A stretch of 26,013 nt of DNA from a virus (lineage: Duplodnaviria; Heunggongvirae; Uroviricota; Caudoviricetes), in IMG/VR virus record IMGVR_UViG_2671180460_000013, one strand, 5' to 3'. A program made the position numbers and the translations under genes. Below are positions 1-25,355 of the stretch, one piece after another. Position 1 is the stretch's first letter. The number at the start of each line of letters is the position of its first letter. The notes beneath the pieces were generated by a model that ran no database searches, was not told where the DNA came from, and saw nothing but the letters and a program-made list of their open reading frames with translations.

Positions 1-381
1 TTATGAGTTCTGGAATTCTTCTGCCCGTCTTTCCAGTTCAGCCATGAAAGAAGTTTTGGCTTTTTCGTGAGCATCTGGGGCCATGATGCTGATGATTTGT
101 ATATTGTCATAATCCATCCAGTGCCTTGTATAAACCAGATAGATATTTGAAGTTCTGTCTATTTGGGCTTTGCTTTTCTTCCATGGTGGTTCTGACGGTA
201 GTCTTATGTGTAATTTATATACAAACGAACCACATAATCTTGCGTTATCTTCCCACTGCCCTTCATTGCCGAATCTGTCAGGGAGAACACCGGTATTTAA
301 CCAGTTTTCCAGAGCCTTTCCGTAAACTTTTGCAATGTCCTGGTATTCAACATCTTTATGAATGCTTACTTTGCTTGCCAT
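1..381 (-). CDS. hypothetical protein (126 aa), distal gene of a two-gene cargo operon; faint RelE/ParE-like C-terminal pattern, function unassigned
   Basis: ORF track 1..381. ATG at 379-381 overlaps the TGA of the upstream gene (TGATG), stop TAA at 1-3. Sampled lines are AT-richer than the structural genes. Confidence 0.5.
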   Translation of the reverse strand: MASKVSIHKDVEYQDIAKVYGKALENWLNTGVLPDRFGNEGQWEDNARLCGSFVYKLHIRLPSEPPWKKSKAQIDRTSNIYLVYTRHWMDYDNIQIISIMAPDAHEKAKTSFMAELERRAEEFQNS

Positions 382-1007
382 CAGGAAAACTCCGGTGCCG
401 GGAGTCCCATGTTTTTATGCTCGGCAATAATCATTGCTTTCACATTTCCGTCAGACAGCGTATTGCCCAGGCTGGTTGTTTTGTCTGGTGCGGTGCTTCG
501 TTTGATGGTGTTGATGGCATCACGAGCGATAAACTCCCCCTGCGCAATTGCCCGACCAAAACGAACCAGTTTATTGCGATAGGCGATTCTTTGCTCCAGG
601 CTATCCGGATACATTTTTGCCAGGTTATCCGGATCCATTACAATTTTGACAGCCTCTTTAACACGGGTGTGCTGCTTAATTGACTCTTCGCATATTTTTA
701 TGATTTTTGCGGTTTTGTCAGTAAATAGTGCTCCCTTACCTCTGTTCTGTCGTTCTTCAATGACTGCATTGAGCGCGGCACGCATGTTGTCATTCAGCCC
801 GTTGATATATTCAATAGCTTCTTCGAGAGGCAGAAACACCTGACCATCATGATGCTCAAATGTAAGCATTGAAACCACTCTGGCGTGTGTCGCGGATTCA
901 ATAACTGTTGTTGGTAGTATCGTGCTTTTAGCTGGCACCGGAGCCAGTGATGCTGTCAGAGCTGTAGTAATAGCAGCAATGGCAGCAGACTTTGATTTTC
1001 GTTTCAT
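381..1007 (-). CDS. exported protein of unknown function (Sec-type signal peptide), about 208 aa
   Basis: ORF 381..1019. Internal ATG at 1005-1007 is preceded by GGAG. N-terminus MKRKSKS followed by hydrophobic AAIAAITTALTASLA and a VPA cleavage-like site. Confidence 0.55.
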   Translation of the reverse strand: MKRKSKSAAIAAITTALTASLAPVPAKSTILPTTVIESATHARVVSMLTFEHHDGQVFLPLEEAIEYINGLNDNMRAALNAVIEERQNRGKGALFTDKTAKIIKICEESIKQHTRVKEAVKIVMDPDNLAKMYPDSLEQRIAYRNKLVRFGRAIAQGEFIARDAINTIKRSTAPDKTTSLGNTLSDGNVKAMIIAEHKNMGLPAPEFS

Positions 1008-1544
1008 AATGCACTCCACAGGTTGATGTGTTCAGCATATCGCAAATAGCAGCTTGTATAAAGAAACGCCACATCAGCAGCGATCGTTTTACGCGCTTTT
1101 CTTCTTGTTGCGATCCTTTTTTCAGTTTTATTTTGGAGCTTAATTTTGTGCGGGCCGCGCCGTGTCTGCCTTCTTTGTTTGATGGTTGTTTGACGCGATC
1201 CTTTCGTGATCGTTTTTTTGTCTCGCGTAAAGTATGAAAACTCTTTTAATATCATGCGGTTTTATTGCTCCGGCCATTTGTGCGATCGTAAAAACCACTT
1301 TGAAAACTGCAAAAAATTTCAAAGCGTGAAATTTCAGATCTTCGCTTTTCCCTCAGTTGCTGCGCGGGCTGGCGGTCATTTTTGCACGGCAGAAAACTGA
1401 AAAAGTGTTTCGACACAAAACCCGCGGGTTGGAGGGGGTAGCGCGGTTTACGTTACCTCACGCTTTACGTCACGCCGTTTGCGCGGTGTGCGCATACAGC
1501 GCCAGAATGGCATGCAGAACGATTAATCAGGTGGCAGATATGAA

Positions 1545-1568
1545 AACGCACGGCCGGGACCGTGCGTT
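1545..1568 (-). terminator. candidate intrinsic terminator hairpin downstream of the tail operon
   Basis: 9-bp inverted repeat AACGCACGG / CCGTGCGTT with a 6-nt loop, followed on the minus-strand transcript by UUCAU. Lies about 40 nt after the stop of the 1607..3304 gene. Confidence 0.4.
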
Positions 1569-1606
1569 GCGTGATGGGGCGTTTATGTGGCTTTTATGTC
1601 TGGTGT

Positions 1607-3304
1607 TCAGGCGATAATGTCGCCGTATTTTTCGCGCAGGCTCGTCGCCTGCAGGGCATCTGCGGCAAGTTCGCTGCTGTTCATTGGTGTGCCAGTGTTG
1701 CTATGGGTGTGGTTTGCTGTATGTGTGGCCAGTAATTGAATCAGATCCAGAATATCGATCAGCAACGTCAGCAGGTTAAGCCCTGACTTTTCCCGCGAGC
1801 CGCCGCGACCAATAAATACTGTCGGAGCGGTAAACTCCAGACCGCCGTCCGCTCTGCATGTTCTGCGGCCTCCCACGTTTTCGGTGAGGTCATGCTCAAT
1901 GGTGGATATCGCCCCTTTGAGTTGAGTCAGCAAATCCTGCGCTACCATCTGGATATGCTCACCGGCTGCGATCGCATAATTGCCGGTAGTAAGGTGTTCT
2001 GTCTGGCCTGTCATCAGTTTGCTGGTACCAAGAACACTGGTTATGTCGTTTGCCTGGACTGTTGTTGTTCTGGTTGTTGTTGTGCGTTCTTCCTGATCGC
2101 TGTTAATGGTTCGCCTGGCTGAATGCTCCCTGATTTGCTGGTCGGTTTCTCTGTGCCAGCTTCCGTCAGTCGTGACGCGCTGAAACACTTCTGCGCGCTG
2201 TTGCTGCAGCTGTTCGCCGGGCTTTACATCAGGCAGGTTATGGCCTGCGGGTAAGATTTGCCTGATGACAGGTTTATCCGGTCGTCCTTCAATGTTGGAT
2301 ATTTCCACGATGGTGCCAGCCGGCGGGTAGGCAAAACATCCCGCCTCGCTACCAGCCATCGGGACGGGGAGTGGTACTGCCGGATAAACAGGCGTATCGC
2401 TTTTATCGTTGCCGTTCTCATCAAGCAGTTGCACATCGACGGCGTAGCGTGGGCGGAAACTGTCGGCAACATCGCCCAGGGTGACGGATTCCGTTGGGGC
2501 AATGACGCGCGCCAGCCTGGTATGTAGAGTACCGCTGGCCAGTTCCGGGAACTGTGTTTCCATCTGTCTGCGTAATGGTGATTTGGAAACAGGGCTACCC
2601 GTGGTGGTAAGGCGTTCCCATGTCAGGGTCATTTTCTCGTTGTTGAGGGCTACACGGGTAATGCGCCCGGCTGGAAGGTTCACGCCCGGTCGCACAGTTT
2701 CCATAAACATGATGTCGATGCTGTTTCCGCCGCTTTGCCCGAGTGTGTACTGTTGCGGAATATCCGGCATGGTAATACTGGCAAACCGTGAGTCCGATGC
2801 GCTTCCCACAAATACGGAACCGTCCGGCATTGGATGCCAGACGTAATCGCTGATACTGAATGCTCGCCCCAGCTGGCTAAGCAGTTGTGTTCCGCTGCCG
2901 CTGTGGGTGATGTAAGGTGTCGGAGTACCGACGTAATCCGCGTCTGGCGTGATGAAAACGATGCCGCTTTGTTTACCCAGACTATCGAGTACATCCCGTA
3001 ACGTTGGATGTTGCATGGAGCAGGGGAAATCAAAATCCAGCACGGCAGCTGCTTCACGGATAAAAAGGCGGCGTGAGCCATTTTCGGCGGGTTGATCGCG
3101 TTCAATGTAGCCGGAGAAATAGCGCCATGCCTCACCATTACGGCCGAGATCAATTTGTATCATTGCGCCGGCAAGACTTTTTTTGGGTGGCAGATTATTA
3201 ACAGAAATGAAGCCACGACCGGCAGCATTCAGGGTAAGAACAAGGCTGATATCGGCAATTTCCGCCAGCTCGCCATTAATCATACAGCGTTGGATTAATT
3301 TCAT
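1607..3304 (-). CDS. baseplate central spike protein (gpV / gp5-like OB-fold and His-rich tip) with a ~300-aa N-terminal extension, possibly a hub-spike fusion
   Basis: 565 aa. Motif AGTIVEISNIEGRPDKPVI resembles the OB-fold signature of P2 gpV / VgrG. C-terminal THTANHTHSNTG resembles the HxH metal-binding apex of spike proteins. ATGA overlap with the upstream gene; AGGAGG RBS. Confidence 0.5.
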   Translation of the reverse strand: MKLIQRCMINGELAEIADISLVLTLNAAGRGFISVNNLPPKKSLAGAMIQIDLGRNGEAWRYFSGYIERDQPAENGSRRLFIREAAAVLDFDFPCSMQHPTLRDVLDSLGKQSGIVFITPDADYVGTPTPYITHSGSGTQLLSQLGRAFSISDYVWHPMPDGSVFVGSASDSRFASITMPDIPQQYTLGQSGGNSIDIMFMETVRPGVNLPAGRITRVALNNEKMTLTWERLTTTGSPVSKSPLRRQMETQFPELASGTLHTRLARVIAPTESVTLGDVADSFRPRYAVDVQLLDENGNDKSDTPVYPAVPLPVPMAGSEAGCFAYPPAGTIVEISNIEGRPDKPVIRQILPAGHNLPDVKPGEQLQQQRAEVFQRVTTDGSWHRETDQQIREHSARRTINSDQEERTTTTRTTTVQANDITSVLGTSKLMTGQTEHLTTGNYAIAAGEHIQMVAQDLLTQLKGAISTIEHDLTENVGGRRTCRADGGLEFTAPTVFIGRGGSREKSGLNLLTLLIDILDLIQLLATHTANHTHSNTGTPMNSSELAADALQATSLREKYGDIIA

Positions 3305-3876
3305 GTTTTCCCTTCCTCCTTCACGCTCCCGATGCCAATCCAGTCCAGCCCGGAGCCAATACCATCATTGATATTTTTCCAGAAAGTCTCCTGGGTATTC
3401 ATTCCTTTATCTGGTGCCTGCTCACTGCCGTTCTGTGTCTGCTGCTTTGCGATTGTTTTCTGTGAGCCACTGCGTGCCGATGCTTTTTCCGGCACGCTTA
3501 ATTTTTCCCTGAGGGTAAAGGTGACCTGCCAGTGCATCTTGCCCTGTTGTTCCGTGGCATCGATGCCGCCCGAAAAAACACCCTGTCGCATATTAATCGC
3601 CTTAGCAGTAGCGTTGGCGATGCGGTATGTTTTTTTGGCTCCGTTACTTTCTGTTGCCTCCGCAAGCTGAAAAATACGGGTCAAAATAGCTTCATCGTTA
3701 AAATCAATAACCCCCGACACGCGCAGCTCTTTGGCCTTGTTTCCCTGCTGGGCGCTCGTGGTGCTGGTTGATTGTCCGGACATATCTTTGTCCGGTAGTT
3801 GCATGGTGGCGCTGACGGTGATGTTGCGCAGCAGAATGGCTTCCCCGTCAAGCGCAAGGACAATCATCTGGGTCAT
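3301..3876 (-). CDS. hypothetical tail/baseplate-associated protein (191 aa)
   Basis: ORF with ATG at 3874-3876; its stop overlaps the start of the spike gene (ATGA). Sits inside the tail operon; no recognisable motif. Confidence 0.4.
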   Translation of the reverse strand: MTQMIVLALDGEAILLRNITVSATMQLPDKDMSGQSTSTTSAQQGNKAKELRVSGVIDFNDEAILTRIFQLAEATESNGAKKTYRIANATAKAINMRQGVFSGGIDATEQQGKMHWQVTFTLREKLSVPEKASARSGSQKTIAKQQTQNGSEQAPDKGMNTQETFWKNINDGIGSGLDWIGIGSVKEEGKT

Positions 3877-4570
3877 GTAGTGCTTCCCTTAGTGATGAGA
3901 GATTATCGCCGACGAACAGCATCACAGCTGTAAAAACCCACTCGGGGTGTGGGATGTTTTTTTGTATCAGCACTGCGGCCTGGCTAAGGGCTCCCTTGTA
4001 GCAAAAGCGCCACACCGGGCAAAATTTTTGCCGGAGTGCTGCCTGCTGATCAGCGATTTCCTGTAGTGCTTTATCTCTCGCATTCATGAACTGACGCAAC
4101 GATGATGACAATGTTTCCGGTGATGTGACGGCAGGAGTGGCTGCCTGTGCAATGGTTGCTGCCAGTGACATGCTGCGAGTGGTCTGTGTCGATAGCATTA
4201 TCGGTTCCGGAAGTGATGTTAGCGGTCTGGCGGGGATTTGCATTCTGCTGATGGCCAGTGAAAGCTGGCTGGAGATCATGCGGGACATTCGTCCCACCTC
4301 TGGCAACGGAAATGCGCCTGAAAATTGCCTGGCGAGTGATAGAAACTCGTCGGCAGACGGGGCGCAAAATAACAGCGCCACAACGTCTTTTTCTGTGTTT
4401 TCTGTCAGATAAGGTAAAAGCGCGGATACAGCATTATCCGGGCTGAGGTAACGCCCTGATGGTGTAATGTTTCCCGTATTTTCTGACCATGGGTGGAGGC
4501 AAACCATTGAACAGGTAATAGCTATGGGGGCTGGTCGCAAAACAGAGCGTATCCATGTTGAATTGTTCAT
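3848..4570 (-). CDS. hypothetical protein (240 aa), Ser/Thr/Ala-rich with a Cys-containing C-terminus; possible accessory or chaperone of tail fiber 2
   Basis: ATG at 4568-4570 with AGGAAG RBS, 24 nt after the fiber-2 stop. Lacks the conserved C-terminal motif of classical tail fiber assembly proteins. Confidence 0.4.
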   Translation of the reverse strand: MNNSTWIRSVLRPAPIAITCSMVCLHPWSENTGNITPSGRYLSPDNAVSALLPYLTENTEKDVVALLFCAPSADEFLSLARQFSGAFPLPEVGRMSRMISSQLSLAISRMQIPARPLTSLPEPIMLSTQTTRSMSLAATIAQAATPAVTSPETLSSSLRQFMNARDKALQEIADQQAALRQKFCPVWRFCYKGALSQAAVLIQKNIPHPEWVFTAVMLFVGDNLSSLREALHDPDDCPCA

Positions 4571-4594
4571 TTGTTCTTCCTGTGTGTCCGGATA

Positions 4595-6151
4595 TTACCC
4601 CATTCCGTTCTGGCGTAATGTTGTTCCCGCAAATATTTTTGCCACCACAACACAGGGAAGGGGGCCATTTTCTGCGCTGGCTGTCTCCTCCAGTGTCGAT
4701 GTATCCAGTGCATAGTAAGGTGTGTCTGGCATCACCACCCGTATTCTTACTGTTATTGTGCTCGCGGTAGCCGAAACAGAACCGACAAAATACTGAGCAG
4801 GAATGTATTTCCGGTTCTGATTCATGTAGAGATAACGTGGTTCGAGCAGAGCAGAAACAACGATACCCACTCCCCCAACAGAGGATTTCCTGACAGGATT
4901 AGATACATCCAGTTCCATAGCATAAATACGTGAACCATCCGGTAGGCTTTTAAATGAATCCAGGTTGCTGTTCAGGGTACTTGCAGCCACCTTTGGAATG
5001 ACCGGATGAGTGCCATCAACAAATAAGTCTCCGGATTGTTGTCTGGACAGTAAATTGGTCGGCGCAGAAGAAATTGCGGGGTCCTCTGATGAATGGATGT
5101 CAAGAGATTCTATCTGTTTGCGAACAAAGGCCACACTGGCAATTTCATTATCTGCTGCATCATCCGGCGGTGTTGGTATAGTCGGCTTTCCTGTGAATTC
5201 CGGGCTTTCCAGAGGAGCCCTTGTTTCAATAAGTTCCCTGAGTGCAACCTCGTTTACTTTCAGGTTTTCCCAGCCAGTCAGCCAGCCATTACCAGTGGAC
5301 CAGTAACGGTTGTAATAAATATTGCCATTAATGCCGTAGAAAATAATGGCCTTTGCTGTATGTGACGGAAGTGGTGGGTTCTGGTTCGCCTCCAGCCAGC
5401 GGATACTTATCACCCCCCGAAAAACAATGCCGGGAAGTACACCGTTTGCCCCATCCACATAATATTCTCCTGGTTCCACATATCTTATCCATGCCAGAAA
5501 ATCAGCATCAGAGTTAAACCTGACGGCCTCTCCCGGAATAAAAATATGCCCAAAACCAAATGCGCCTGGTGTCGCCAGACGACCTTCAGAACGGTCACGG
5601 ATACCATTCTGAGGTTCCATTGTGGCCGCTTTTTTTAGCCCGAGATTATCGCGTGATTCCTGTTGTGCCTCTTCGCCCTCATCAGCAATTTCTGACAGGC
5701 GATTAGGTGCTTTCAGTGCTGTTTTCAGTTCCGGAGTGATATCCACCTGCCAGCTCTGCGGAGGGGCTGTGACTTGTGCAGACTGAGCAATGCCGCTGTA
5801 TATAATCGTGAAATTACGAATAAGTGATTCGCCTGTTACTTTTTGTCGAACAGGCGTTTTTATTACGCCGCACAATGTTCTGCTGGCCTGATGGATGAGG
5901 CAAATCCAGTCATAACTGAATGCGGAGTCATCGGGAACAACGGCACTACACACAATATTGTTCTGACTTAACTGCCCATAGGTCAGTTCATTAACAATAT
6001 ATGTGATTTTTTCTTCCGGGATGGCATCATCTTCGCGCGTCGGCTCCCGCTCCATCAGGGCAAAAATAATGGCATCAGGGCGTGCAGGTAAATTACTGGC
6101 TGTGCATTCAGCAACCCACTTTTCAAATGCTTTCGTTAACAGTGCGCTCAT
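4595..6151 (-). CDS. tail fiber protein 2 (518 aa)
   Basis: N-terminal ~150 aa alignable by eye to the N-terminus of fiber 1 (PARPD, YxW motifs). Contains the fiber motif SPEFTGKPTIPTPP...EIASVAFV. C-terminal half is unrelated to fiber 1. AT-richer than neighbours. Confidence 0.7.
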   Translation of the reverse strand: MSALLTKAFEKWVAECTASNLPARPDAIIFALMEREPTREDDAIPEEKITYIVNELTYGQLSQNNIVCSAVVPDDSAFSYDWICLIHQASRTLCGVIKTPVRQKVTGESLIRNFTIIYSGIAQSAQVTAPPQSWQVDITPELKTALKAPNRLSEIADEGEEAQQESRDNLGLKKAATMEPQNGIRDRSEGRLATPGAFGFGHIFIPGEAVRFNSDADFLAWIRYVEPGEYYVDGANGVLPGIVFRGVISIRWLEANQNPPLPSHTAKAIIFYGINGNIYYNRYWSTGNGWLTGWENLKVNEVALRELIETRAPLESPEFTGKPTIPTPPDDAADNEIASVAFVRKQIESLDIHSSEDPAISSAPTNLLSRQQSGDLFVDGTHPVIPKVAASTLNSNLDSFKSLPDGSRIYAMELDVSNPVRKSSVGGVGIVVSALLEPRYLYMNQNRKYIPAQYFVGSVSATASTITVRIRVVMPDTPYYALDTSTLEETASAENGPLPCVVVAKIFAGTTLRQNGMG

Positions 6152-6157
6152 TACTTC

Positions 6158-6694
6158 TTAATTCTCGCTAATATTCTGCGGTAATTCTGGCCATACAATT
6201 GCGGCATACGATGATTTATCTGTAACCTGACTGAATGTCATCTCTCGTAACGTTTTTGTATAAATACGCCAGACTTTCAGCTTTTCCTTGTCTTCATCGC
6301 TGATTAACCCCAGCAGCAAGTCTGTCTTTTTATCGGATATTTCCCGTTCAGCAATCTCTATAAAACGCGCACGCTCCGACTCCGCCCGCTGTCTGTAGTC
6401 AACAGGAACAGGAAGAACTGCGCCATCTTTATAATACCAACGTGCTTCAATACAAAAACCTTCGGGTAATTCATCCGCTTCCACAATGGTAAAACCTGCC
6501 GGATAAAGCCGGGATACGTCTTCCGCCATTGAATAAATAACGCCGGTTTCAGGATGCGTGCACAGCTTGTACTTCTTCGTGAATTTATCCAGTGATTCAT
6601 AAAAATCCTGCCCGTCTTCACTACGGAAATACTGAATGCCTTCACCATAAGGCATATCTTCAGGGTAGTAACGCGTAACATTTCTGAGCTCCAT
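6158..6694 (-). CDS. tail fiber assembly protein (P2 gpG / Tfa-like)
   Basis: Start moved to the internal ATG at 6692-6694, preceded by AAGGAG. KDGAV motif and C-terminal WPELPQ resemble P2 gpG as recalled. Immediately downstream of fiber 1. Confidence 0.8.
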   Translation of the reverse strand: MELRNVTRYYPEDMPYGEGIQYFRSEDGQDFYESLDKFTKKYKLCTHPETGVIYSMAEDVSRLYPAGFTIVEADELPEGFCIEARWYYKDGAVLPVPVDYRQRAESERARFIEIAEREISDKKTDLLLGLISDEDKEKLKVWRIYTKTLREMTFSQVTDKSSYAAIVWPELPQNISEN

Positions 6695-6708
6695 TGTTTT
6701 CTCCTTAA

Positions 6709-8406
6709 TTAACCTGACACAGAACGCCATGCGCCATTTATATAAATCTGAGCCTGTTTGTAATACACGCCACCGATATTATCCGCAGAGTTGCTCCCGG
6801 TATCCTGAACCAGAATACCGGACAGGGTGCAGCCAGACGGTGCGCGGAACGTCCAGCTGTGTTCGTTCCCTCCCGGGTTGTAAAACACCTCACTGGTGTA
6901 CTGAAAATTCTGCACGCCTCCTGTTCTGGTCTGGTAGCGTTCATCGAAATTGCCATAATCAGTTGGTGTTACCCGCCCTGAAACATTCACTTCCCGGTTA
7001 CTTTGTAACGCGCCATTCTGAAAACGGAATATGTGCTGACCATTGGCATAAACATCCAGCAGGCCGTCACCATTCTGTTTCAGGCCGGTATCGTTATCCC
7101 CGAAAGCAATTGAGTTACCGCCCAGCGCGTTCTGAACGCCGATACCAAGTGCACCATTGACCTGCGAACCACCGCCAACAGACACTTTATGCGACATGGA
7201 TATTTCACCCGTCCGCAGATTAATAGTGAACGGTCGAAGTGGACCAATATCGCCATTCTCGCCCTGACCTTCACTGGTAGGGATAAGGTGCAGGCACTCT
7301 TCCGAACGACGAAAAATCAGACCAAAGGCTTCGTCGAAAATTCGCAGCGCATTAATACCACGGATTTTCAGCTCCCCGGTCATGGTATCGCCGTCGCGCT
7401 CAACAGCGCCTTTTGCCTTATCCATTACGATTTTTACTGCCTTTGATGTGGCGGCACGGTCTTCTGCGTCACTGTCGGTGTCATTACTGTACTGCGCAAA
7501 ACCCTTTTCGTTCAGTGTGGCATCCGGATGTCTGCGGGATTTTTCGTGTTCTGCCAGCGCATTGCTTTGTTCCTCGTCGGGTGTTTCCGGGCGCAGATCC
7601 TGTGGGCCGTCTCCTGTCATTTTTGCAAGTGGCGCGACAAAGTGTCGGAAGCCGTTATCGTCTGTATAGGACGCATGTTCCTGGCGGGCGCAGAACGTAA
7701 AAACGGTATTCCATTCGCCGGTAACAAATCCCTGCCAGCTTGCATCAATCCAGAGGGTATCCCCGACCGCAGCCGGCAGGCTGTAAGGTTCGCGCAGACT
7801 GACGCGCAGACCTCCCACATAACCCACGCCGGCGGCAACAGTAGCGGTACCGTCCTGATAGCTGACCTGAAAACCATCCCCCAGAAAAGCGGCTTCACCG
7901 TAGTGATCAAACGCCAGCAGCCGGCGGGCCTCATCCATTCCTGCAAGGCGTGCAGTGAAATCAATCTGCCAGACATCAGCGCTGACATCGATATGCATTG
8001 CTGCGGCTGCGCCGTCAAACTCCATGGAAAATGTGCGGATCAGGTTGTTTCCCTGCACGCCGTTCGCTGTTTTAATTTTTTGCTGACGAGGTGTGTGTGC
8101 AATCATGCAGAGCACGCCGCTTTCTTCGTTCAGCAGACCGATCCAGTTGTATTCGAAGTCGCCGACTGTCGTGTCCAGAATGATGGAAAACGCGGTCGCG
8201 TTCGGCGACAGGAGGCCGTACTGGGTGACCGGCGCACGATACTGAATCATGGATTCATCAGGGAGTATCTCATCGCGGGGGATCTCTGCGGATTCATCCT
8301 GTCCCGGAATATATGCAAAAACAAATGTATCCGGTCGCGCAGGTTTTCCACTGATGATCTGATTTGCGCACCAGTGTTCGTATTGTTCAGTAATAATCGT
8401 GCTCAT
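6709..8406 (-). CDS. tail fiber protein 1 (P2 gpH-like)
   Basis: 565 aa. AEHEKSRRHPDATLNEKGF, GDNDTGLKQNGDGLLDVYANGQHIFRFQNG and C-terminal YINGAWRSV match recalled P2 gpH blocks. ATGA overlap with the upstream gpI-like gene. Confidence 0.85.
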   Translation of the reverse strand: MSTIITEQYEHWCANQIISGKPARPDTFVFAYIPGQDESAEIPRDEILPDESMIQYRAPVTQYGLLSPNATAFSIILDTTVGDFEYNWIGLLNEESGVLCMIAHTPRQQKIKTANGVQGNNLIRTFSMEFDGAAAAMHIDVSADVWQIDFTARLAGMDEARRLLAFDHYGEAAFLGDGFQVSYQDGTATVAAGVGYVGGLRVSLREPYSLPAAVGDTLWIDASWQGFVTGEWNTVFTFCARQEHASYTDDNGFRHFVAPLAKMTGDGPQDLRPETPDEEQSNALAEHEKSRRHPDATLNEKGFAQYSNDTDSDAEDRAATSKAVKIVMDKAKGAVERDGDTMTGELKIRGINALRIFDEAFGLIFRRSEECLHLIPTSEGQGENGDIGPLRPFTINLRTGEISMSHKVSVGGGSQVNGALGIGVQNALGGNSIAFGDNDTGLKQNGDGLLDVYANGQHIFRFQNGALQSNREVNVSGRVTPTDYGNFDERYQTRTGGVQNFQYTSEVFYNPGGNEHSWTFRAPSGCTLSGILVQDTGSNSADNIGGVYYKQAQIYINGAWRSVSG

Positions 8407-9038
8407 GCTTTGTCTGCCTGTAATGTGTAATGCTCCACGGACAGGCCGTAATGTCCTGCCTGTAGCGAAGCGGTTAACCAGATGGTGTCCTTTCTCACCG
8501 TTGCTTCTGCTGTGTGATACCTGTAATGACCATCGAATGTGCCGGCTGTCAGCCGGGCGGTGGTTGTATTGATTACCTGAAAGAAATAGCGCCTGCAGGT
8601 ACGGCCATACTGGCGCACGAGCTGCATCATCAGGGCATTGTTTTCGCTTAACTGGGTGTCATTGATACGCAGTAAAATAACGTCCCAGTCATGCTGCAGC
8701 TGTCGTTCCAGGGTTTTTACCTCTCCCACCCCAAGACGCTTAAAGATGCGTTCGAAGCCTGCGCGTTCGCCCGAGTCCTGAGCGTTGATAAACGCGTGTT
8801 TTACCCTTAAGCGAAATAATGAAACTGGCTCCCCACTGAAGCGGGTGATGTTGCGCTGATAGGCAAGCAGGTTAAGCAGAGGCTCTGCGCAGGTATCAAC
8901 ATCAATTTGCTGTAGTGGCCATGTCAGCCAGCTGTAGACCTTCTCCCAGTAACGACGTGAAGAATGTGCCAGTGTTAATGGCTCTCCCTTGTTCATCCAG
9001 GTTGGGAGAGGGAATTCGGGCATCTCCGGAATATTCAT
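8403..9038 (-). CDS. baseplate protein, P2 gpI-like (tail protein I family)
   Basis: Start moved to the internal ATG at 9036-9038 (GGAGG RBS, ATGA overlap with the J-like stop). Position between the J-like gene and the tail fiber matches the P2 J-I-H order. Sequence similarity is weak. Confidence 0.55.
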   Translation of the reverse strand: MNIPEMPEFPLPTWMNKGEPLTLAHSSRRYWEKVYSWLTWPLQQIDVDTCAEPLLNLLAYQRNITRFSGEPVSLFRLRVKHAFINAQDSGERAGFERIFKRLGVGEVKTLERQLQHDWDVILLRINDTQLSENNALMMQLVRQYGRTCRRYFFQVINTTTARLTAGTFDGHYRYHTAEATVRKDTIWLTASLQAGHYGLSVEHYTLQADKA

Positions 9039-10219
9039 GACCCCACCTCCACGATAAGGGATTCCAGGCGAGGCACAGCCAGGTCGCTGAGAATATCCGG
9101 AAGGGAAAACGTGACCGATTCCACCTGTGGAAATACCTGGTGGATCTCTTCGCCCAGTCGGGACATGCTGAAACGGCTGTACGGCCATGTTTTCTGAACG
9201 TCATAATCGCTGTTTTCGCGAAACGCACAGCGGACCAGATTCTCTACGTTGCGTAATAAAGCCTGTATCTCTTCAGCGTTGAGGTTCAGCGTTGCATACA
9301 GCCAGAGTGTCACGGTCAGGGCATGGCGCGTTTCAGGCATGGAAAAACAACGCAAATCATCGCCGTGTCCGTGATGACCTTCATCGTTAATAAATGCGTT
9401 TACTGCATCAACGAACGGTTCGGATGCGATGCCGGTATCCAGCAGAATGTAAGCATTTGCTGTGCCGGGGCCGCGTGGTGCGTCATGCAAAAAATAGATG
9501 CGGTCGGCACTGATACCTGCAACGCCGGCAATTAATCCCCGGTAAACAGCATCTGTGTGATAAGCGCCGGCAAGATTAAACTGATTGCGAACACGATCAC
9601 GCAGCTCGTCATCGCTTTCTTCGTTGGCACCCGGTGTGGTCAGCCAGTTTTCATCGTTCTCAACGCCGGCAATACCATCAATCGCCACCGGAAGGATGCG
9701 GTAATATCCCGGCGCAAGGTTAAAGCCGGCTCCGGCCTGTTCCGCAGAAACATCGATGTTCATGCTGAGTGTTCCTGCCGGAATAACGGTATCCCTGACA
9801 ACGGTCAGCGTATAAATCACGCCGTTAATGCGTTCTGTCTGAATCTGCGTACCGGCCGGCACGGTAACTGTGCGATCAATGTCGTTTTTGGTGAAACGAA
9901 TCACGCCGGCTGCGTGCGTGGCGGCCTTGCGTTGCAGGTTTACCGCCCAGGCAAAAACATCAACGAATACACCGCTGGCATCAGCCAGAAACAGGTTTTT
10001 CATCACCACATTAACCAGCGCATCTTTCAGCCACATCACGGGCTTTGTGGTGATGGCTGTAATCAGTCGCCAGAACGGCGACATGCGGGATGTGTTGGTA
10101 ATAAGCCCTTCGTCTTTGACAATGGCTTCAAATTCAGCGCGCGCCTGTTCTTCGGTTACCGGCATGCCATTATCAGCCAGAATGCGCTCGTAATCTGCGG
10201 TAGGTTTGCCGTTAATCAT
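9035..10219 (-). CDS. baseplate wedge protein, Baseplate_J family (P2 gpJ / T4 gp6-like)
   Basis: About 394 aa; ESDDELRDRV region resembles recalled P2 gpJ. ORF-track start at 10222 is TTG; the adjacent ATG at 10217-10219 is used. Confidence 0.65.
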   Translation of the reverse strand: MINGKPTADYERILADNGMPVTEEQARAEFEAIVKDEGLITNTSRMSPFWRLITAITTKPVMWLKDALVNVVMKNLFLADASGVFVDVFAWAVNLQRKAATHAAGVIRFTKNDIDRTVTVPAGTQIQTERINGVIYTLTVVRDTVIPAGTLSMNIDVSAEQAGAGFNLAPGYYRILPVAIDGIAGVENDENWLTTPGANEESDDELRDRVRNQFNLAGAYHTDAVYRGLIAGVAGISADRIYFLHDAPRGPGTANAYILLDTGIASEPFVDAVNAFINDEGHHGHGDDLRCFSMPETRHALTVTLWLYATLNLNAEEIQALLRNVENLVRCAFRENSDYDVQKTWPYSRFSMSRLGEEIHQVFPQVESVTFSLPDILSDLAVPRLESLIVEVGS

Positions 10220-10562
10220 CAAGAGATACCGTAAAAGTCAGGTGGTCAAAAAAATCTTCGGTGTGGGCGCTAATCAGCAGGCGACCAGAAAGCGGGGTTT
10301 CTTCTGTCACACTGACCGTGCCAGGTGTGATGCGCTCATCATCTTCAATCAGTAGTGTCATCTGCATTATGAGGTCGGCACGAAGCGTCGGGCTTTTTTC
10401 AGCCAGCAGGCGCGTTGCCAGTCCGCTCTCAATGATGGCGTGCTGGCAGTCCTGGGCAATACTTTCCCTGTTGTTGCATAACACCGGCTCACTGGCGCTG
10501 TTCAGCGTGAGATTGCGACCGGTGATAAGCAAATCAATGTAAAGCGGTTTATCAGTATGCAT
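10212..10562 (-). CDS. small baseplate protein, tentatively GPW / gp25-like
   Basis: Internal ATG at 10560-10562 with GGAG RBS gives 116 aa, overlapping the tape-measure stop. Size and position match P2 gpW; motif match is loose. Confidence 0.45.
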   Translation of the reverse strand: MHTDKPLYIDLLITGRNLTLNSASEPVLCNNRESIAQDCQHAIIESGLATRLLAEKSPTLRADLIMQMTLLIEDDERITPGTVSVTEETPLSGRLLISAHTEDFFDHLTFTVSLDD

Positions 10563-12648
10563 GTAGCTCCATCCACTCGTTGAGACGGGCAGGAGATGGA
10601 TCCTGCACGTTGACGTTGACCACACGACGGGAGTTATCGATTGTGGTCTGGTTTTCGTTGTTGTTCTGCATCTCTGCCGCAATGCCACCCGGCCCCGCGC
10701 TGATGGCTTTACCACCGGTTAATACGGAGCCTTCGCCACTTCCTGTGCTTTCTGATGTGCCGATGTTAACGCCGGGGATCATGTTGAGTTTGTCCACAAT
10801 CCAGCCCCATGAATCACTGAAGGACTGTTTCACCAGTTCCCAGAGGTTACTGAAAATGTTCAGGATGCCGCCGGCGATATCCTTCAGGGCGTCCAGAGGT
10901 GAATGCGTGGAAAAATAGTTAACCAGTGCATTCCAGCCGTCCTGGATTGTGTTCCATGCATTGCCGAACCATGCCCCCATACTGCCGACCATTTCAGCCA
11001 CCCACTGAAAGGCGGCGGTGTCCATCAGTGCGGCTTTGATTTCATCCCAACGGGTGATCAGGAAATAAATGCCCACACCCAGCGCAGCCAGTGCCAGGAT
11101 GATTAATGTGATGGGGCTGAAAAGTAACTGTGTTGCAATTGCAGCTCCGCTGGTGACTGCGGTGTAGATTTTCATTGCTATGCCGGCGGCACCCAGCGCA
11201 ACAGAATAAAGCCAGAGTCCGGCGCGCTGTAATTTCAGCAGCGCCAGCTGAATTTTTGCTTTGACGTTGTATGTTCCCATAGCAATGGACATGGCCAGAT
11301 ACAGCGCCCTGACCGTTCGGGCAACTACAGTGAATGCCCACATGGTAGCCGTCAGTGTGCGTTTCAGCAGAATGAGAATCTTCAGAGGTGTAACTGCTGC
11401 CAGCCAGACCAGCCGCAGTCCTGTCCAGACAAACTTCGCCACACCCACCATAATGTTGACAACGGCACCCACTGCGGCAATGCCCAGCAGGGCGGCAGAC
11501 AGTAAACCAATAGCCCGTGTGATATTGGGATACAGACGTAACCAGGCAACAAAGGATTTACCGCCTTCGTTGCTTTTCTGGATAAACGGGTACAGAACAG
11601 GCAGCAACTGCGTGCCGATTTCGATGCGAATGCCGTTAATAATTGCGGCGGCCTGTTCCCATGGATCAGCCATGGCCTGCGCCATTTCGACAGCCTTATC
11701 CATCCCTTTGATATTGCCCAGCGTGGCGATATTCTTTTCAAGTCCGCCAATGTCCGCATTGAGTAATTTAATCATGGCCACAGCTTCATCGGAGCCAAAG
11801 GCGCTTTTCAGCAAATCGGAATCAGCCACTTTTGACAGATCACCAAATTTGCCCCTGATAAGTTTCATGATCTCGACAACACTTTTCATCGTGCCGTTTT
11901 TATTCACGAAATTAAGCCCCAGCTTTTTCTGGGCGCTGCCTACTGCGGCAAGAAATGCCTTGTACTTTGTCCCGGCCTCGCTGCCACTCATGGTGGCCTG
12001 CAGTTGTCCCAGCACGGCGAACTGTTCAGCCGCATCAATACCGGCCGCTTTTGCACTGGCACCCAGCGTGGTGAACGCCGCTGACATGTTATCGCCGGTT
12101 GTTTTAAACATTTGCACGGCGGTGGCGGTTTGCCCGGCGACCTGCTCCACCCATTTGCTTTTTCCCATGGCATCAGCCTGGTCTTTAAAGATGCCGTACA
12201 TGGTGCCCATGTAGGCGGTAATGGTCTGGCTGCTGGATTTGGTTGCTGCTGCCACCGTTGCTGATGCGGTGGTGAAGCGGGACAGCTCATCGTCAGTTAA
12301 CCCGGCAATGGCTGACTGGATGTCGTAAGAAGCACGCACAAAATCCTGCGCAGCCCCGCCGTATTCCATAGTGAAATCAACGGCGGCGCGGCTGAGTTTA
12401 CGCAATCCGGACTCTGCGACGCCCAGTGATTTCACCTCACCGAGCGCCCTGTCCATTTCAATGGCTGGCATCAGTGCCCCCTGAATGGCTGCACCCACTC
12501 CCCAGAGCGCAGCGCCTCCGGTAGCAATGTCCCGAAAGGCTCCCCGACTTGTTGCAGCAAATCCCTGAACCTGTCGCCCGGCTGCACGCAACGGCCTTGT
12601 CAGGCGGTCTGTCAGTTCAAGAAGTAATTCAAGGCGCTGTTGTGACAT
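10552..12648 (-). CDS. tail tape measure protein
   Basis: 698 aa, Ala/Gly-rich with a long hydrophobic central segment. Directly follows the frameshifted tail chaperone pair; its ATG overlaps the stop of the frameshift product. Confidence 0.8.
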   Translation of the reverse strand: MSQQRLELLLELTDRLTRPLRAAGRQVQGFAATSRGAFRDIATGGAALWGVGAAIQGALMPAIEMDRALGEVKSLGVAESGLRKLSRAAVDFTMEYGGAAQDFVRASYDIQSAIAGLTDDELSRFTTASATVAAATKSSSQTITAYMGTMYGIFKDQADAMGKSKWVEQVAGQTATAVQMFKTTGDNMSAAFTTLGASAKAAGIDAAEQFAVLGQLQATMSGSEAGTKYKAFLAAVGSAQKKLGLNFVNKNGTMKSVVEIMKLIRGKFGDLSKVADSDLLKSAFGSDEAVAMIKLLNADIGGLEKNIATLGNIKGMDKAVEMAQAMADPWEQAAAIINGIRIEIGTQLLPVLYPFIQKSNEGGKSFVAWLRLYPNITRAIGLLSAALLGIAAVGAVVNIMVGVAKFVWTGLRLVWLAAVTPLKILILLKRTLTATMWAFTVVARTVRALYLAMSIAMGTYNVKAKIQLALLKLQRAGLWLYSVALGAAGIAMKIYTAVTSGAAIATQLLFSPITLIILALAALGVGIYFLITRWDEIKAALMDTAAFQWVAEMVGSMGAWFGNAWNTIQDGWNALVNYFSTHSPLDALKDIAGGILNIFSNLWELVKQSFSDSWGWIVDKLNMIPGVNIGTSESTGSGEGSVLTGGKAISAGPGGIAAEMQNNNENQTTIDNSRRVVNVNVQDPSPARLNEWMELHAY

Positions 12649-23355: not shown

Positions 23356-23406
23356 AACCCGGAACGGGCGCACAAAGAATTTGCGCACCCGTTCCGGGTT
23401 TTCTTA
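23356..23406 (+). terminator. intrinsic terminator between convergent ogr and the Rrf2/par operon (possibly bidirectional)
   Basis: 13-bp perfect stem AACCCGGAACGGG / CCCGTTCCGGGTT around a 19-nt partly self-complementary loop, followed by TTTTCTTATTC on the plus strand. Confidence 0.6.
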
Positions 23407-23763
23407 TTCAATGGCAGACAACTGATAATTTGTGTCTTCCTGCAGGCTGGTTAAAGAAATATTATCCAGTGCAGCCAGAATAACGTGCTGTGTATATAAT
23501 CCGGAACATTTCATTGCCCGGACAATATCACCAACACTGTAATTTTCTTTTGTCGGGATATATCCACCACCCGGGCCGCGTGTGGCTTTTACCAGGCTAC
23601 TTTCCCGTAAATATCTGAATATTTGCTCCAGATATGACAGTGAAACGGTTTCTTTGCTTAATTGCCGGAGCGAGATTGGCTTTCCGGTGTACTGTTTCAC
23701 AAATTTAATCATTACCATAACTGCAACTGATGCACGCTGGCTTCCGGAATTATCTTTCATCAT
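23404..23763 (-). CDS. Rrf2-family transcriptional regulator (short; lacks the three-Cys cluster ligand set)
   Basis: Start at the ATG doublet 23758-23763 with GGAAG RBS. ISLRQLSKETVSLSYLEQIFRYLRESSLVKATRGPGGGY matches the Rrf2 HTH / GGGY signature. Only one Cys in the C-terminal half. Confidence 0.7.
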   Translation of the reverse strand: MMKDNSGSQRASVAVMVMIKFVKQYTGKPISLRQLSKETVSLSYLEQIFRYLRESSLVKATRGPGGGYIPTKENYSVGDIVRAMKCSGLYTQHVILAALDNISLTSLQEDTNYQLSAIE

Positions 23764-23774
23764 GATTACTTCCA

Positions 23775-24062
23775 TTAATGGCATAAATTGATGGAGCGGG
23801 TCAGTGAATAAAGAGGCAATACATTCCATCCCTTAGAGCGCCAGCTGTCTGCAACATCTTTACTTCTTGTTATCGCCGGTATTCCAATAGGATTATTTGC
23901 GTGCATCCATGCCACTGGCTCTGCTTCCAGTGATGCAAGTGCGATTTCCAGTGCGATTAACATATTGTGATCGTCTTCATCAAGACCGAACGGGATGTCT
24001 TCGCGCCACGATTTAAACTCTGTGATTTTACGTTGTAACCATTCTTTGGTAATGGTGGACAT
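23775..24062 (-). CDS. hypothetical protein (95 aa) co-transcribed between parR and the Rrf2 gene
   Basis: ORF-track start at 24080 is GTG. The internal ATG at 24060-24062 has an AGGAG RBS 6 nt upstream. No recognisable motif. Confidence 0.5.
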   Translation of the reverse strand: MSTITKEWLQRKITEFKSWREDIPFGLDEDDHNMLIALEIALASLEAEPVAWMHANNPIGIPAITRSKDVADSWRSKGWNVLPLYSLTRSINLCH

Positions 24063-24076
24063 AGTTACTCCTGTTT

Positions 24077-24391
24077 TCACTTCGGGAAAAACGCCTGAAT
24101 ATTTTTTTTCACCTGCTGCATATGGGTGGCGCTGTCTGCTGCTGGTTGCGCCGGTTTTTCAGGCTGTACTGGTAGCGGTGGCATCCGTATTTCGTCTTCT
24201 GACCATTCTGCCAGCGAATACGCCAACGCGGGGTGGCGTTTTATAAGAGCCAGTCCGGCCAGAAAAGCCGCGCGTTGTGCGCGGCTGCGTTCGGAGGCTG
24301 GCAGGCTGTCGAGGTAACTGCACGCCTCCCGTTCGCTCTTGACGACGGCGGGCTTCAGATAGAAACTTATCCGTCTGGTTGGTGTCGTCAT
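24077..24391 (-). CDS. parR: ParR-like centromere-binding protein (ribbon-helix-helix type, type II partition)
   Basis: Internal ATG at 24389-24391 with an AAGGAG RBS inside the parM 3' end. RISFYLKP...LDSLPASERSRAQRAAFLAGLAL parallels recalled R1 ParR (IAFKLNPD...LDSIPQGERSRLNRAALTAGLAL). Confidence 0.75.
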   Translation of the reverse strand: MTTPTRRISFYLKPAVVKSEREACSYLDSLPASERSRAQRAAFLAGLALIKRHPALAYSLAEWSEDEIRMPPLPVQPEKPAQPAADSATHMQQVKKNIQAFFPK

Positions 24392-24395
24392 TGAT

Positions 24396-25355
24396 TTACT
24401 CCTTGTCCATTGCGTACAGCCCATTAACCAGAGCAAACTGTGGCACCCCGTCCGCGATGAAAGTCGCATTAACTCCGCAGGCTTCGCGGATAGCGGGTGC
24501 CACAATCTCCGCTCCTCCACCTACAACCATCACCCGCCCGTAACCCGAAAAACCCGCCAGCGCGCGGATCACGCGTTGTTTCAGTGTTTCTTCCTTTTCA
24601 CGAATAACAGCCATCAGGCTGGCGTAATGTGCGTTATTGTGGATGTGCTGGCGCAGCCAGGCTTCATCGTGGCGATGTTCGATAATGGTATTAGCGATGT
24701 GGTGACTGGTACGCATACCGTTGGTGGCCATCACCGACAGCACGGCATCGGCCATCAGGGAAACGCCTACGTGTGGATCGCAAAACACCTGGCTGATACC
24801 TGCCAGTTGCCCCTGAACCTTTGCCACATCCAGCGTGGTTCCGCCCAAATCCACAATCAGCAGGGATTCAAACGGACTCATGTCAGCCAGTGCTTTAAAG
24901 CCTGCCGGAATGGATTCAGGCATAACCCGCACGTTACGGATAGTGAATGCCTCACCGTTCTGGTACTCCACCGGGCGCATGACGTTCGCTTTTTTGCGGT
25001 TGATGTTGGCCATGTCCGGCTGTGCGTTTGTGTCGAAATACTCGCTCAGTGGCAGGGTGACAACCACATCCACCTCCTGTGGCGTGATGCCTGATTTGAC
25101 CAGCGCGTGATGAATGGCAATTACATTCACATCGCTGTACTGGTATTGCGTGTCGGTCGTCTGGACAAAGCGATCGCTGACCGGATCAAAACCATAGCGC
25201 ACGCCATCAAGCATGTAGTTCGCGGGCTGCGTGCCACCGAACGGCGCAGACCATTCCGACTTGAAGCTGTTCGGGCTGATGGCGTTGCGGCGTTCGCCGT
25301 TCTCAGTCCATGCCAGCTTGATGTTGGTGGAGCCGTCATCGATACAAATTTTCAT
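24396..25355 (-). CDS. parM: ParM / StbA-family actin-like segregation ATPase
   Basis: 319 aa. MKICIDDGSTNIKLAW, ISPNSFK, YSDVNV..HHAL, VMPESIPAG, DLGGTTLD and VVGGGAE blocks align by eye with recalled R1 ParM along most of the protein. Confidence 0.9.
   Translation of the reverse strand: MKICIDDGSTNIKLAWTENGERRNAISPNSFKSEWSAPFGGTQPANYMLDGVRYGFDPVSDRFVQTTDTQYQYSDVNVIAIHHALVKSGITPQEVDVVVTLPLSEYFDTNAQPDMANINRKKANVMRPVEYQNGEAFTIRNVRVMPESIPAGFKALADMSPFESLLIVDLGGTTLDVAKVQGQLAGISQVFCDPHVGVSLMADAVLSVMATNGMRTSHHIANTIIEHRHDEAWLRQHIHNNAHYASLMAVIREKEETLKQRVIRALAGFSGYGRVMVVGGGAEIVAPAIREACGVNATFIADGVPQFALVNGLYAMDKE

Follow-up and report, generated by a model that had tools for sequence, protein, structure and literature searches.

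Two-fibre phages and the HP1-type tail

Tail fibres set the host range of temperate phages, and of the tailocins engineered from P2- and HP1-type tails. In HP1 and its relatives ESSI-2, SI7 and K139, all Peduoviridae with an HP1-type tail, the tail module carries a single fibre gene, and its gene order and homologous proteins, from the tape measure to orf35, are the same as those in the stretch of DNA considered here. This stretch, referred to below as the window, is a 26,013-nucleotide (nt) piece of a caudoviral genome (IMG/VR record IMGVR_UViG_2671180460_000013); all coordinates refer to it, and the whole E. coli prophage extends past it. The window differs from HP1 and its relatives in that it encodes two fibres, here called fibre 1 and fibre 2, the second of which has a paralogous anchor domain and lies between the Tfa assembly chaperone and orf33, followed in most relatives of this locus by a DUF4376 gene. 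On the basis of their sequences the two appear to be complete fibres, each a receptor-binding protein (RBP), and probably both would be mounted via different anchors, conferring two receptor specificities at once. What the sequences show is that both genes are intact, that the anchors are paralogous, conserved and under purifying selection, that modules are exchanged, and that a switching device is absent.

An earlier note on this DNA described fibre 1 as P2 gpH-like, and the comparison with P2 holds for part of the protein. Fibre 1 has the same PF03406 repeat region as gpH and also a matching distal segment, with 72% and 60% identity over two 50-amino-acid (aa) stretches. The gpG-like assembly protein that the note placed after fibre 1 is indeed there: Tfa belongs to PF02413 and has 28% identity to gpG of P2 (E 9e-21). 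The likeness to gpH is confined to distal segments (E 3e-21, 5e-14) and does not extend to the anchor: the N-terminus of fibre 1 reaches only E 0.29, and that of fibre 2 has no match. Where P2 has V-W-J-I baseplate genes and one fibre, the baseplate here, like the tail module as a whole, is of HP1 type. The phage is HP1-like rather than P2-like.

Phages with two fibres are well known elsewhere, so that the present locus extends a familiar theme and is no great surprise. Wifcevirus and the Gordonclarkvirinae, both studied in the BASEL collection, carry two different fibres or RBPs per virion (PMC11990801). In these groups, as in the T-even phages with their long and short fibres, the fibres are co-expressed and at least one has horizontally exchanged receptor-binding domains. 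One of their two fibres is conserved and is thought to be mechanical, whereas at this locus both distal parts vary; the locus is further set apart by its paralogous copies of one anchor domain and its minimal HP1-type baseplate. In the branched dual-RBP systems (KP32, CBA120-type) the second RBP has only a short docking peptide and attaches to the first, which bears an adaptor or branching domain, a plan unlike that seen here, where both fibres have a full PF12571 anchor and no adaptor domain is detected by Pfam or PHROGs. The lambdoid side tail fibres (Stf) have the middle module and exact tip type of fibre 2 on a PF08400 anchor in place of PF12571, and the same distal modules thus occur on siphovirus and myovirus scaffolds. 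The G segment of Mu and the C segment of P1 likewise hold alternative host-range determinants beside tail-fibre assembly genes, but there an invertase and inverted repeats flip variable ends behind a constant N-terminal exon, whereas the present locus has two complete genes and lacks such repeats. A search of the literature turned up no report of HP1-like Peduoviridae with a second fibre slot that has a paralogous anchor, which is not proof of absence, and the proteins of this locus are already public, under generic names.

Two complete fibres with paralogous anchors

All genes of the tail region lie on the minus strand, as given by the list of open reading frames (ORFs). Fibre 1 (6709-8406; 565 aa), the canonical tail fibre of HP1 type, comprises an anchor (aa 1-160, 7927-8406) and a repeat and distal part resembling P2 gpH and Mu S (aa 284-565), and it matches PF03406 with E 2e-12. 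Its Tfa/gpG-type assembly chaperone (Caudo_TAP PF02413, E 1e-16; phrog_136, E 4e-51) is listed as an ORF of 190 aa (6158-6730), the true start of which is probably the ATG at 6694, preceded by an AAGGAG ribosome-binding site, giving a protein of 178 aa (6158-6694), the length annotated in relatives. Fibre 2 (4595-6151; 518 aa) comprises four parts: an anchor (aa 1-145, 5717-6151) that is a divergent paralogue of the fibre 1 anchor; a middle region (aa 146-315, 5207-5716; phrog_2636); a conserved collar motif, SPEFTGKPTIPTPPDDA..FVRK (aa 316-345, 5117-5206); and a distal tip (aa 356-518, 4598-5086). In this window fibre 2 has no dedicated chaperone gene downstream, whereas fibre 1 has one.

The earlier note had described two co-oriented fibre genes at 4595-8406 that share an N-terminal domain and have unrelated distal parts; the coordinates are exact, the description is borne out and both genes are intact. 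BLASTP comparison of fibre 1 with fibre 2 gives one significant segment, covering the first ~160-177 residues (1-173 of fibre 1 against 1-162 of fibre 2; 33% identity, E 1e-22), with no further alignment beyond it, and a chance resemblance of the N-termini is thereby excluded. Both proteins exceed the gathering score of PF12571 (Phage_tail_fib, N-terminal), which is 23 bits, fibre 1 with 102.5 bits and fibre 2 with 39.7 bits. The N-terminal similarity is real, and judged from these alignments it is that of old paralogues and not of a recent duplication. A recent tandem duplication was rejected on the grounds that the anchors are only 33% identical and that the fibre 2 anchor is equally far (26-38%) from every canonical anchor.

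The two anchors have different relationships to those of other HP1-like phages. The anchor of fibre 1 is 70% identical to that of L102, the nearest one-fibre relative among the loci surveyed below, and 48-59% identical to those of other HP1-like fibres, values that mark it as the orthologue of the canonical anchor. The anchor of fibre 2 has 26-36% identity to all canonical anchors, that of fibre 1 included, and is not orthologous to the anchors of single-fibre relatives. An exhaustive HMMER search of 1.84 billion representative proteins returned 19 representatives at 58-100% identity to the fibre 2 anchor, followed by a sharp fall to at most 38%, and the alignment reveals four signature deletions common to all fibre-2-type anchors. 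The ratio of nonsynonymous to synonymous substitution rates (dN/dS; Nei-Gojobori, where dS is unsaturated) is 0.08-0.16 for the fibre 2 anchor; the anchor of fibre 1 and gpI have values of 0.03-0.15, and orf33 has 0.16-0.19. By these measures the fibre 2 anchor is a distinct, old paralogue under purifying selection; because it forms a distinct old clade with signature deletions and low dN/dS, fibre 2 can be regarded as neither a remnant nor a recent duplicate. That its divergence is fixed and yet conserved suggests that the two fibres dock by different surfaces.

An additional gene in an old, lineage-specific slot

Related loci were fetched by alignment to orf34, giving 160 in all (80 from species-representative genomes and 80 from IMG/VR), and each of their ORFs was scanned with a hidden Markov model of the anchor domain. 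One anchor-bearing ORF was found in 126 of the 160 loci and two in 16; one of these 16 is a single fibre split by a frameshift, and the remaining 15 are genuine two-fibre loci. An orf34 with 94% identity or more to the one in the window occurs in these 15 and in none of the other loci surveyed. In L102, with an orf34 65% identical to that of the window, the order is gpI, fibre, tfa, orf33, which is also the order in HP1, the Escherichia phage ESSI2_ev015 and the Salmonella phage SI7, and the position that fibre 2 occupies, between Tfa and orf33, is empty in all four. Fibre 1, which comes immediately after gpJ and gpI and is followed by the Tfa chaperone and orf33-35, stands in the HP1-type position.

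The fibre 2 anchor clade reaches beyond this close group to remoter members in Yersinia kristensenii, Y. enterocolitica, a Plesiomonas metagenome-assembled genome, Citrobacter sp. TSA-1 and another E. coli. Their contigs all read gpJ, gpI, fibre 1 (PF12571 and PF03406), Caudo_TAP, fibre 2 (PF12571), DUF4376, orf33, orf34, orf35, and in the 19 two-fibre loci of Escherichia, Citrobacter, Yersinia and Plesiomonas the order is always fibre 1, Tfa, fibre 2. Within E. coli the lineage is present nearly full-length in 41 of 5,426 complete genomes. From its distribution and synteny fibre 2 is best described as an extra, lineage-specific gene in a slot that is old, only the modules within it being recent.

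Exchange of the distal modules of fibre 2

Database homologues of fibre 2 keep the ~150-aa anchor at 87-89% identity and have unrelated ends. Hundreds of full-length proteins fall into a few discrete length classes (285, 350, 404-416, 518, 645-648, 679-690, 810 and 842 aa), and the exact protein of the window belongs to a 43-member cluster. DNA comparison with relatives places breakpoints at ~5740, which is the end of the anchor; at ~5116-5196, which is the SPEFTGKPT...FVRK collar motif; at ~6323, in the middle of tfa; and at 6747-7433, in the distal part of fibre 1. The collar motif, a recombination junction in fibre 2, is also present in P2 gpH (match E 2e-7). At the DNA level the middle module matches tail-fibre genes of Rac-SA53 and phiP27 with 86-92% identity, and two proteins with a PF08400 N-terminus (P0010 and P0023) show 70-80% identity over ~75% of fibre 2, with the same middle module and tip. 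The tip occurs in several further contexts, joined directly to the anchor in the 350-aa variant, behind a large alpha-rich domain in the 842-aa variant, and as a stand-alone protein of 205 aa; when the tip was used by itself as the query, a word-indexed search for homologues gave 2 proteins.

In 11 related loci fibre 2 is followed by a gene for a DUF4376 protein, a family that includes the tail-fibre chaperones of the Alteromonas phages V22 and A5 (PMC7289586, PMC10579305). The tip type of the window is never paired with a DUF4376 gene (window, L001, L086, L087 and L088), and therefore probably folds without a dedicated chaperone.

Base composition is consistent with this picture. The earlier note observed that fibre 2 and Tfa are AT-richer than their neighbours, and this is the case: the G+C content (GC) of Tfa is 43.8% and that of fibre 2 47.7%, with a GC at third codon positions (GC3) of 0.42, against 51-56% and a GC3 of 0.55-0.64 in other tail and head genes. 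The lower GC of the two fits horizontal exchange of modules. It was also proposed that the region had been recently acquired, which does not apply to the gene as such, its order being kept in four genera; because slot and anchor are conserved across these genera, recent acquisition is limited to the N-terminal half of Tfa and, in fibre 2, to the distal tip.

Two variants of fibre 2 are of separate interest. In L094 (6809-8668, protein P0038) the anchor is followed by a large alpha-rich domain with a weak, sub-threshold match to an MGH1-like glycoside hydrolase (E 1e-3), and alpha-rich variants of this kind may be depolymerase-type RBPs in the same slot. In L006 (7307-9247), from Escherichia albertii, fibre 2 is only 285 aa long, comprising anchor and collar, and is followed by a 352-aa ORF that matches no family, so that the fibre either comes in two pieces or has been truncated, with an unrelated gene after it.

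Predicted fold of the fibre 2 tip

The AlphaFold 2 (AF2) model of residues 356-518 is all-beta, with a mean predicted local distance difference test score (pLDDT) of 79. A Foldseek search with this model matched Helix pomatia agglutinin (HPA) with a probability of 0.97 and a moderate score, and in a viral library it matched a protein of Serratia phage BF (E 6e-11) and also an annotated H-type lectin domain, the scores again being moderate. The tip has no match at the level of sequence to the H-type lectins (HPA, the C-domain of Discoidin I, SLL-2), and the resemblance is one of predicted fold. The model and its matches support the assignment of the tip as a probable, lectin-like receptor-binding domain, a predicted H-type-lectin-like beta-sandwich that would probably bind a surface sugar.

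Expression of the two fibres and their probable mounting on the baseplate

The ATG of fibre 2 lies 6 nt past the stop codon of Tfa, and the ATG of orf33 (4570) lies 24 nt past the stop codon of fibre 2 (4595), with no ORF between. No sigma-70-like promoter site was found in 1000-10500, against 9.1 +/- 3.0 expected from shuffled sequences, nor was a convincing terminator found between the genes. Given the tight spacing (6 and 24 nt) and the lack of an internal promoter or terminator, the genes have the appearance of a single late operon, whose expression should yield both fibres at once. The absence of promoter sites in 1000-10500 is in addition consistent with an activator-dependent late operon.

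The most probable architecture can be assembled from these elements. Fibre 1 with its gpG-type chaperone is the ancestral fibre, present in every HP1-like phage, and fibre 2 fills an extra, lineage-specific slot between Tfa and orf33. Fibre 2 itself is composed of an old paralogous anchor, a shaft or knob module common with the lambdoid side tail fibres, the collar motif as a recombination joint, and a freely exchangeable tip, in this case a predicted lectin-like beta-sandwich that is probably chaperone-independent. One uninterrupted late operon would allow the two fibres to be co-produced, and both would be mounted on the baseplate wedges by their differing anchors. Display of two specificities by the virion, as the earlier note suggested, is the best reading of the locus, and we infer with it co-assembly of the fibres on the virion, separate docking sites for their anchors and the binding of sugar by the fibre 2 tip.

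A precedent for such an arrangement is available in phage XM1, which has 12 spikes on 6 wedges and in which a minimal (gp6-like)2-gp7-like wedge holds two receptor-binding trimers (PMC10457771). The virion might carry twelve fibres on a minimal HP1-type baseplate, six ancestral ones and six second fibres, the latter at a separate plug-and-play socket engaged via the dedicated paralogous anchor. With modules drawn from lambdoid siphoviruses, this socket would take fibres that depend on a chaperone, lectin tips that need none, domains that are probably glycosidases (depolymerases), and fibres in two pieces. We advance this more specific proposal tentatively.

Several observations weigh against the mounting of both fibres. 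No baseplate feature unique to two-fibre phages was found. The closest candidate is a C-terminal extension of gpI of ~25 aa (8403-8480, ..TIWLTASLQAGHYGLSVEHYTLQA), present in 19 of 19 two-fibre loci and absent in L102 and HP1; a gpI tail of similar length is found in two one-fibre loci (L142 and L165), and the extension was rejected as a marker of a second docking site, being not diagnostic. Fibre 2 is preceded by a weak ribosome-binding site, GAAG, only 2 nt ahead of its ATG. In the phage collection no isolated phage matches the lineage beyond short fragments of fibre. The full-length AF2 model of fibre 2 is poor (pLDDT 51), and no solved structure of a PF12571 anchor was found with single sequences or with a 12-sequence profile.

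The main rival, in itself unlikely, is that the baseplate offers one set of six sites for which the two fibres compete, giving a random mix on each virion or a mixed burst and hence a hedging of bets over host range in place of a fixed six plus six. It is favoured by the membership of both anchors in one Pfam family, by the mounting of a single fibre type in HP1-like relatives with the same gpJ/gpI wedge, and by the lack of any baseplate protein with an insertion unique to two-fibre loci. If sites were shared, however, the anchors should stay alike, yet that of fibre 2 is only 33-38% identical to every canonical anchor, has four fixed deletions and is conserved in this form in four genera, which suggests that the contact surfaces differ; moreover the minimal wedge of XM1 can carry two trimers.

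It is quite improbable that fibre 2 is no working part of the virion and represents instead a remnant in decay, a silent cassette kept in reserve for recombination, or cargo. The observations that could be read in this way are the weak ribosome-binding site, the GC below that of neighbouring genes, the lack of a chaperone gene for the copy in the window, and the annotation in close relatives of two partial pseudogenes. The last of these can be traced to RefSeq/PGAP, which breaks up the ORF of fibre 2, although it is intact, in L001 (12523-13557) and L002 (5484-6995) and lists the two pieces as partial pseudogenes, one of them named 'shikimate transporter'. The frames are in fact open (518 aa in L001 and 679 aa in L002), and on the evidence of the reading frames the pseudogene calls are artefacts of a mosaic protein, exposing a systematic error in RefSeq by which an intact fibre gene is split. 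More generally, the frame is open in the window and, with the anchor at its start, in 19 of 19 fully covered two-fibre loci, both of those just named included. Together with a dN/dS of 0.08-0.16 for the anchor, this excludes a disrupted remnant, and against the wider possibility stand also the synteny kept in four genera and the many full-length proteins in few length classes, among them the 43-member cluster of the exact protein.

That the two fibres are used alternately by a genetic switch, of the inverting or phase-varying sort seen in Mu, P1 and certain P2-like phages, is hardly credible. Invertible segments, the G and C segments inverted by Mu Gin and P1 Cin among them, do typically have alternative fibre ends beside a chaperone gene, but here both genes are complete and co-oriented, each with its own start codon and anchor, the inverted repeats in 3000-10500 do not exceed chance (the longest is 25 nt at 76% complementarity), leaving nothing for an invertase to act on, and no recombinase domain was found among the window ORFs scanned against Pfam, although the prophage extends beyond the window and an invertase might lie farther off. 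On these grounds a switch of the Gin or Cin type was rejected, in agreement with the earlier note, which had seen no invertible segment.

Should both fibres be mounted together, the conserved second anchor would provide a ready-made scaffold by which a simple contractile tail adds specificities without replacing existing ones, and this would explain the sampling by this lineage of receptor-binding modules from unrelated lambdoid phages.

Neighbouring genes of the tail module and the rest of the window

From high to low coordinate the tail region reads tape measure, DUF2590, gpJ-like, gpI-like, fibre 1, Tfa, fibre 2, orf33, orf34 and orf35. The tape measure protein is encoded at 10552-12648 and the DUF2590 protein by a listed ORF at 10212-10715, the start of which is likely further downstream, as annotated relatives have ~117 aa. 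The baseplate wedge proteins follow: a gpJ/gp6-like protein (9035-10222; PF04865 Baseplate_J, E 4e-32) in the position of HP1 orf29, and a gpI-like protein of 211 aa (8403-9038; PF09684 Tail_P2_I, phrog_1228), whose listed ORF reaches 9188 and whose real start is probably the ATG at 9038, annotated relatives being 211 aa long. Beyond fibre 2 are the homologue of HP1 orf33 (3848-4570; 240 aa; phrog_1677/31292), identified also by synteny with HP1, ESSI2 and SI7 and preceded by a GGAAG ribosome-binding site; the homologue of orf34, a baseplate complex protein (3301-3876; PF25759, E 2e-53); and the homologue of orf35, a baseplate protein (1607-3304; phrog_2258, E 2e-232) with 38-47% identity to the HP1 and ESSI2 proteins. 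The orf33 protein is the fastest-evolving conserved protein of the module: from genus to genus its identity is 40-79%, whereas gpI and gpJ keep 75-90%. Its N-terminal ~25 residues vary by fibre 2 anchor subtype. The sheath, tube and baseplate genes are of HP1 type and the head genes (terminase, portal, gpO, gpN, gpM, gpL, gpR and gpS) of P2 type.

Adjoining the P2-type portal and terminase genes is a partition pair, ParM and Plasmid_stab_B, with an Rrf2-type regulator (24077-25355 and 23404-23829, both on the minus strand). Copies of this region that are 95-97% identical occur on E. coli and Salmonella plasmids, next to a replication endonuclease gene. A phage-plasmid origin was considered and rejected, plasmid matches being confined to the ParM region and the lineage being chromosomal in E. 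coli. At the other end of the window, where the tail operon ends, are a YafO-family toxin gene (1-381, minus strand) and a gene for a 212-aa partner (381-1019, minus strand); in relatives this position holds Hok/Gef, Com-like zinc ribbon and N6/N4 methylase genes.

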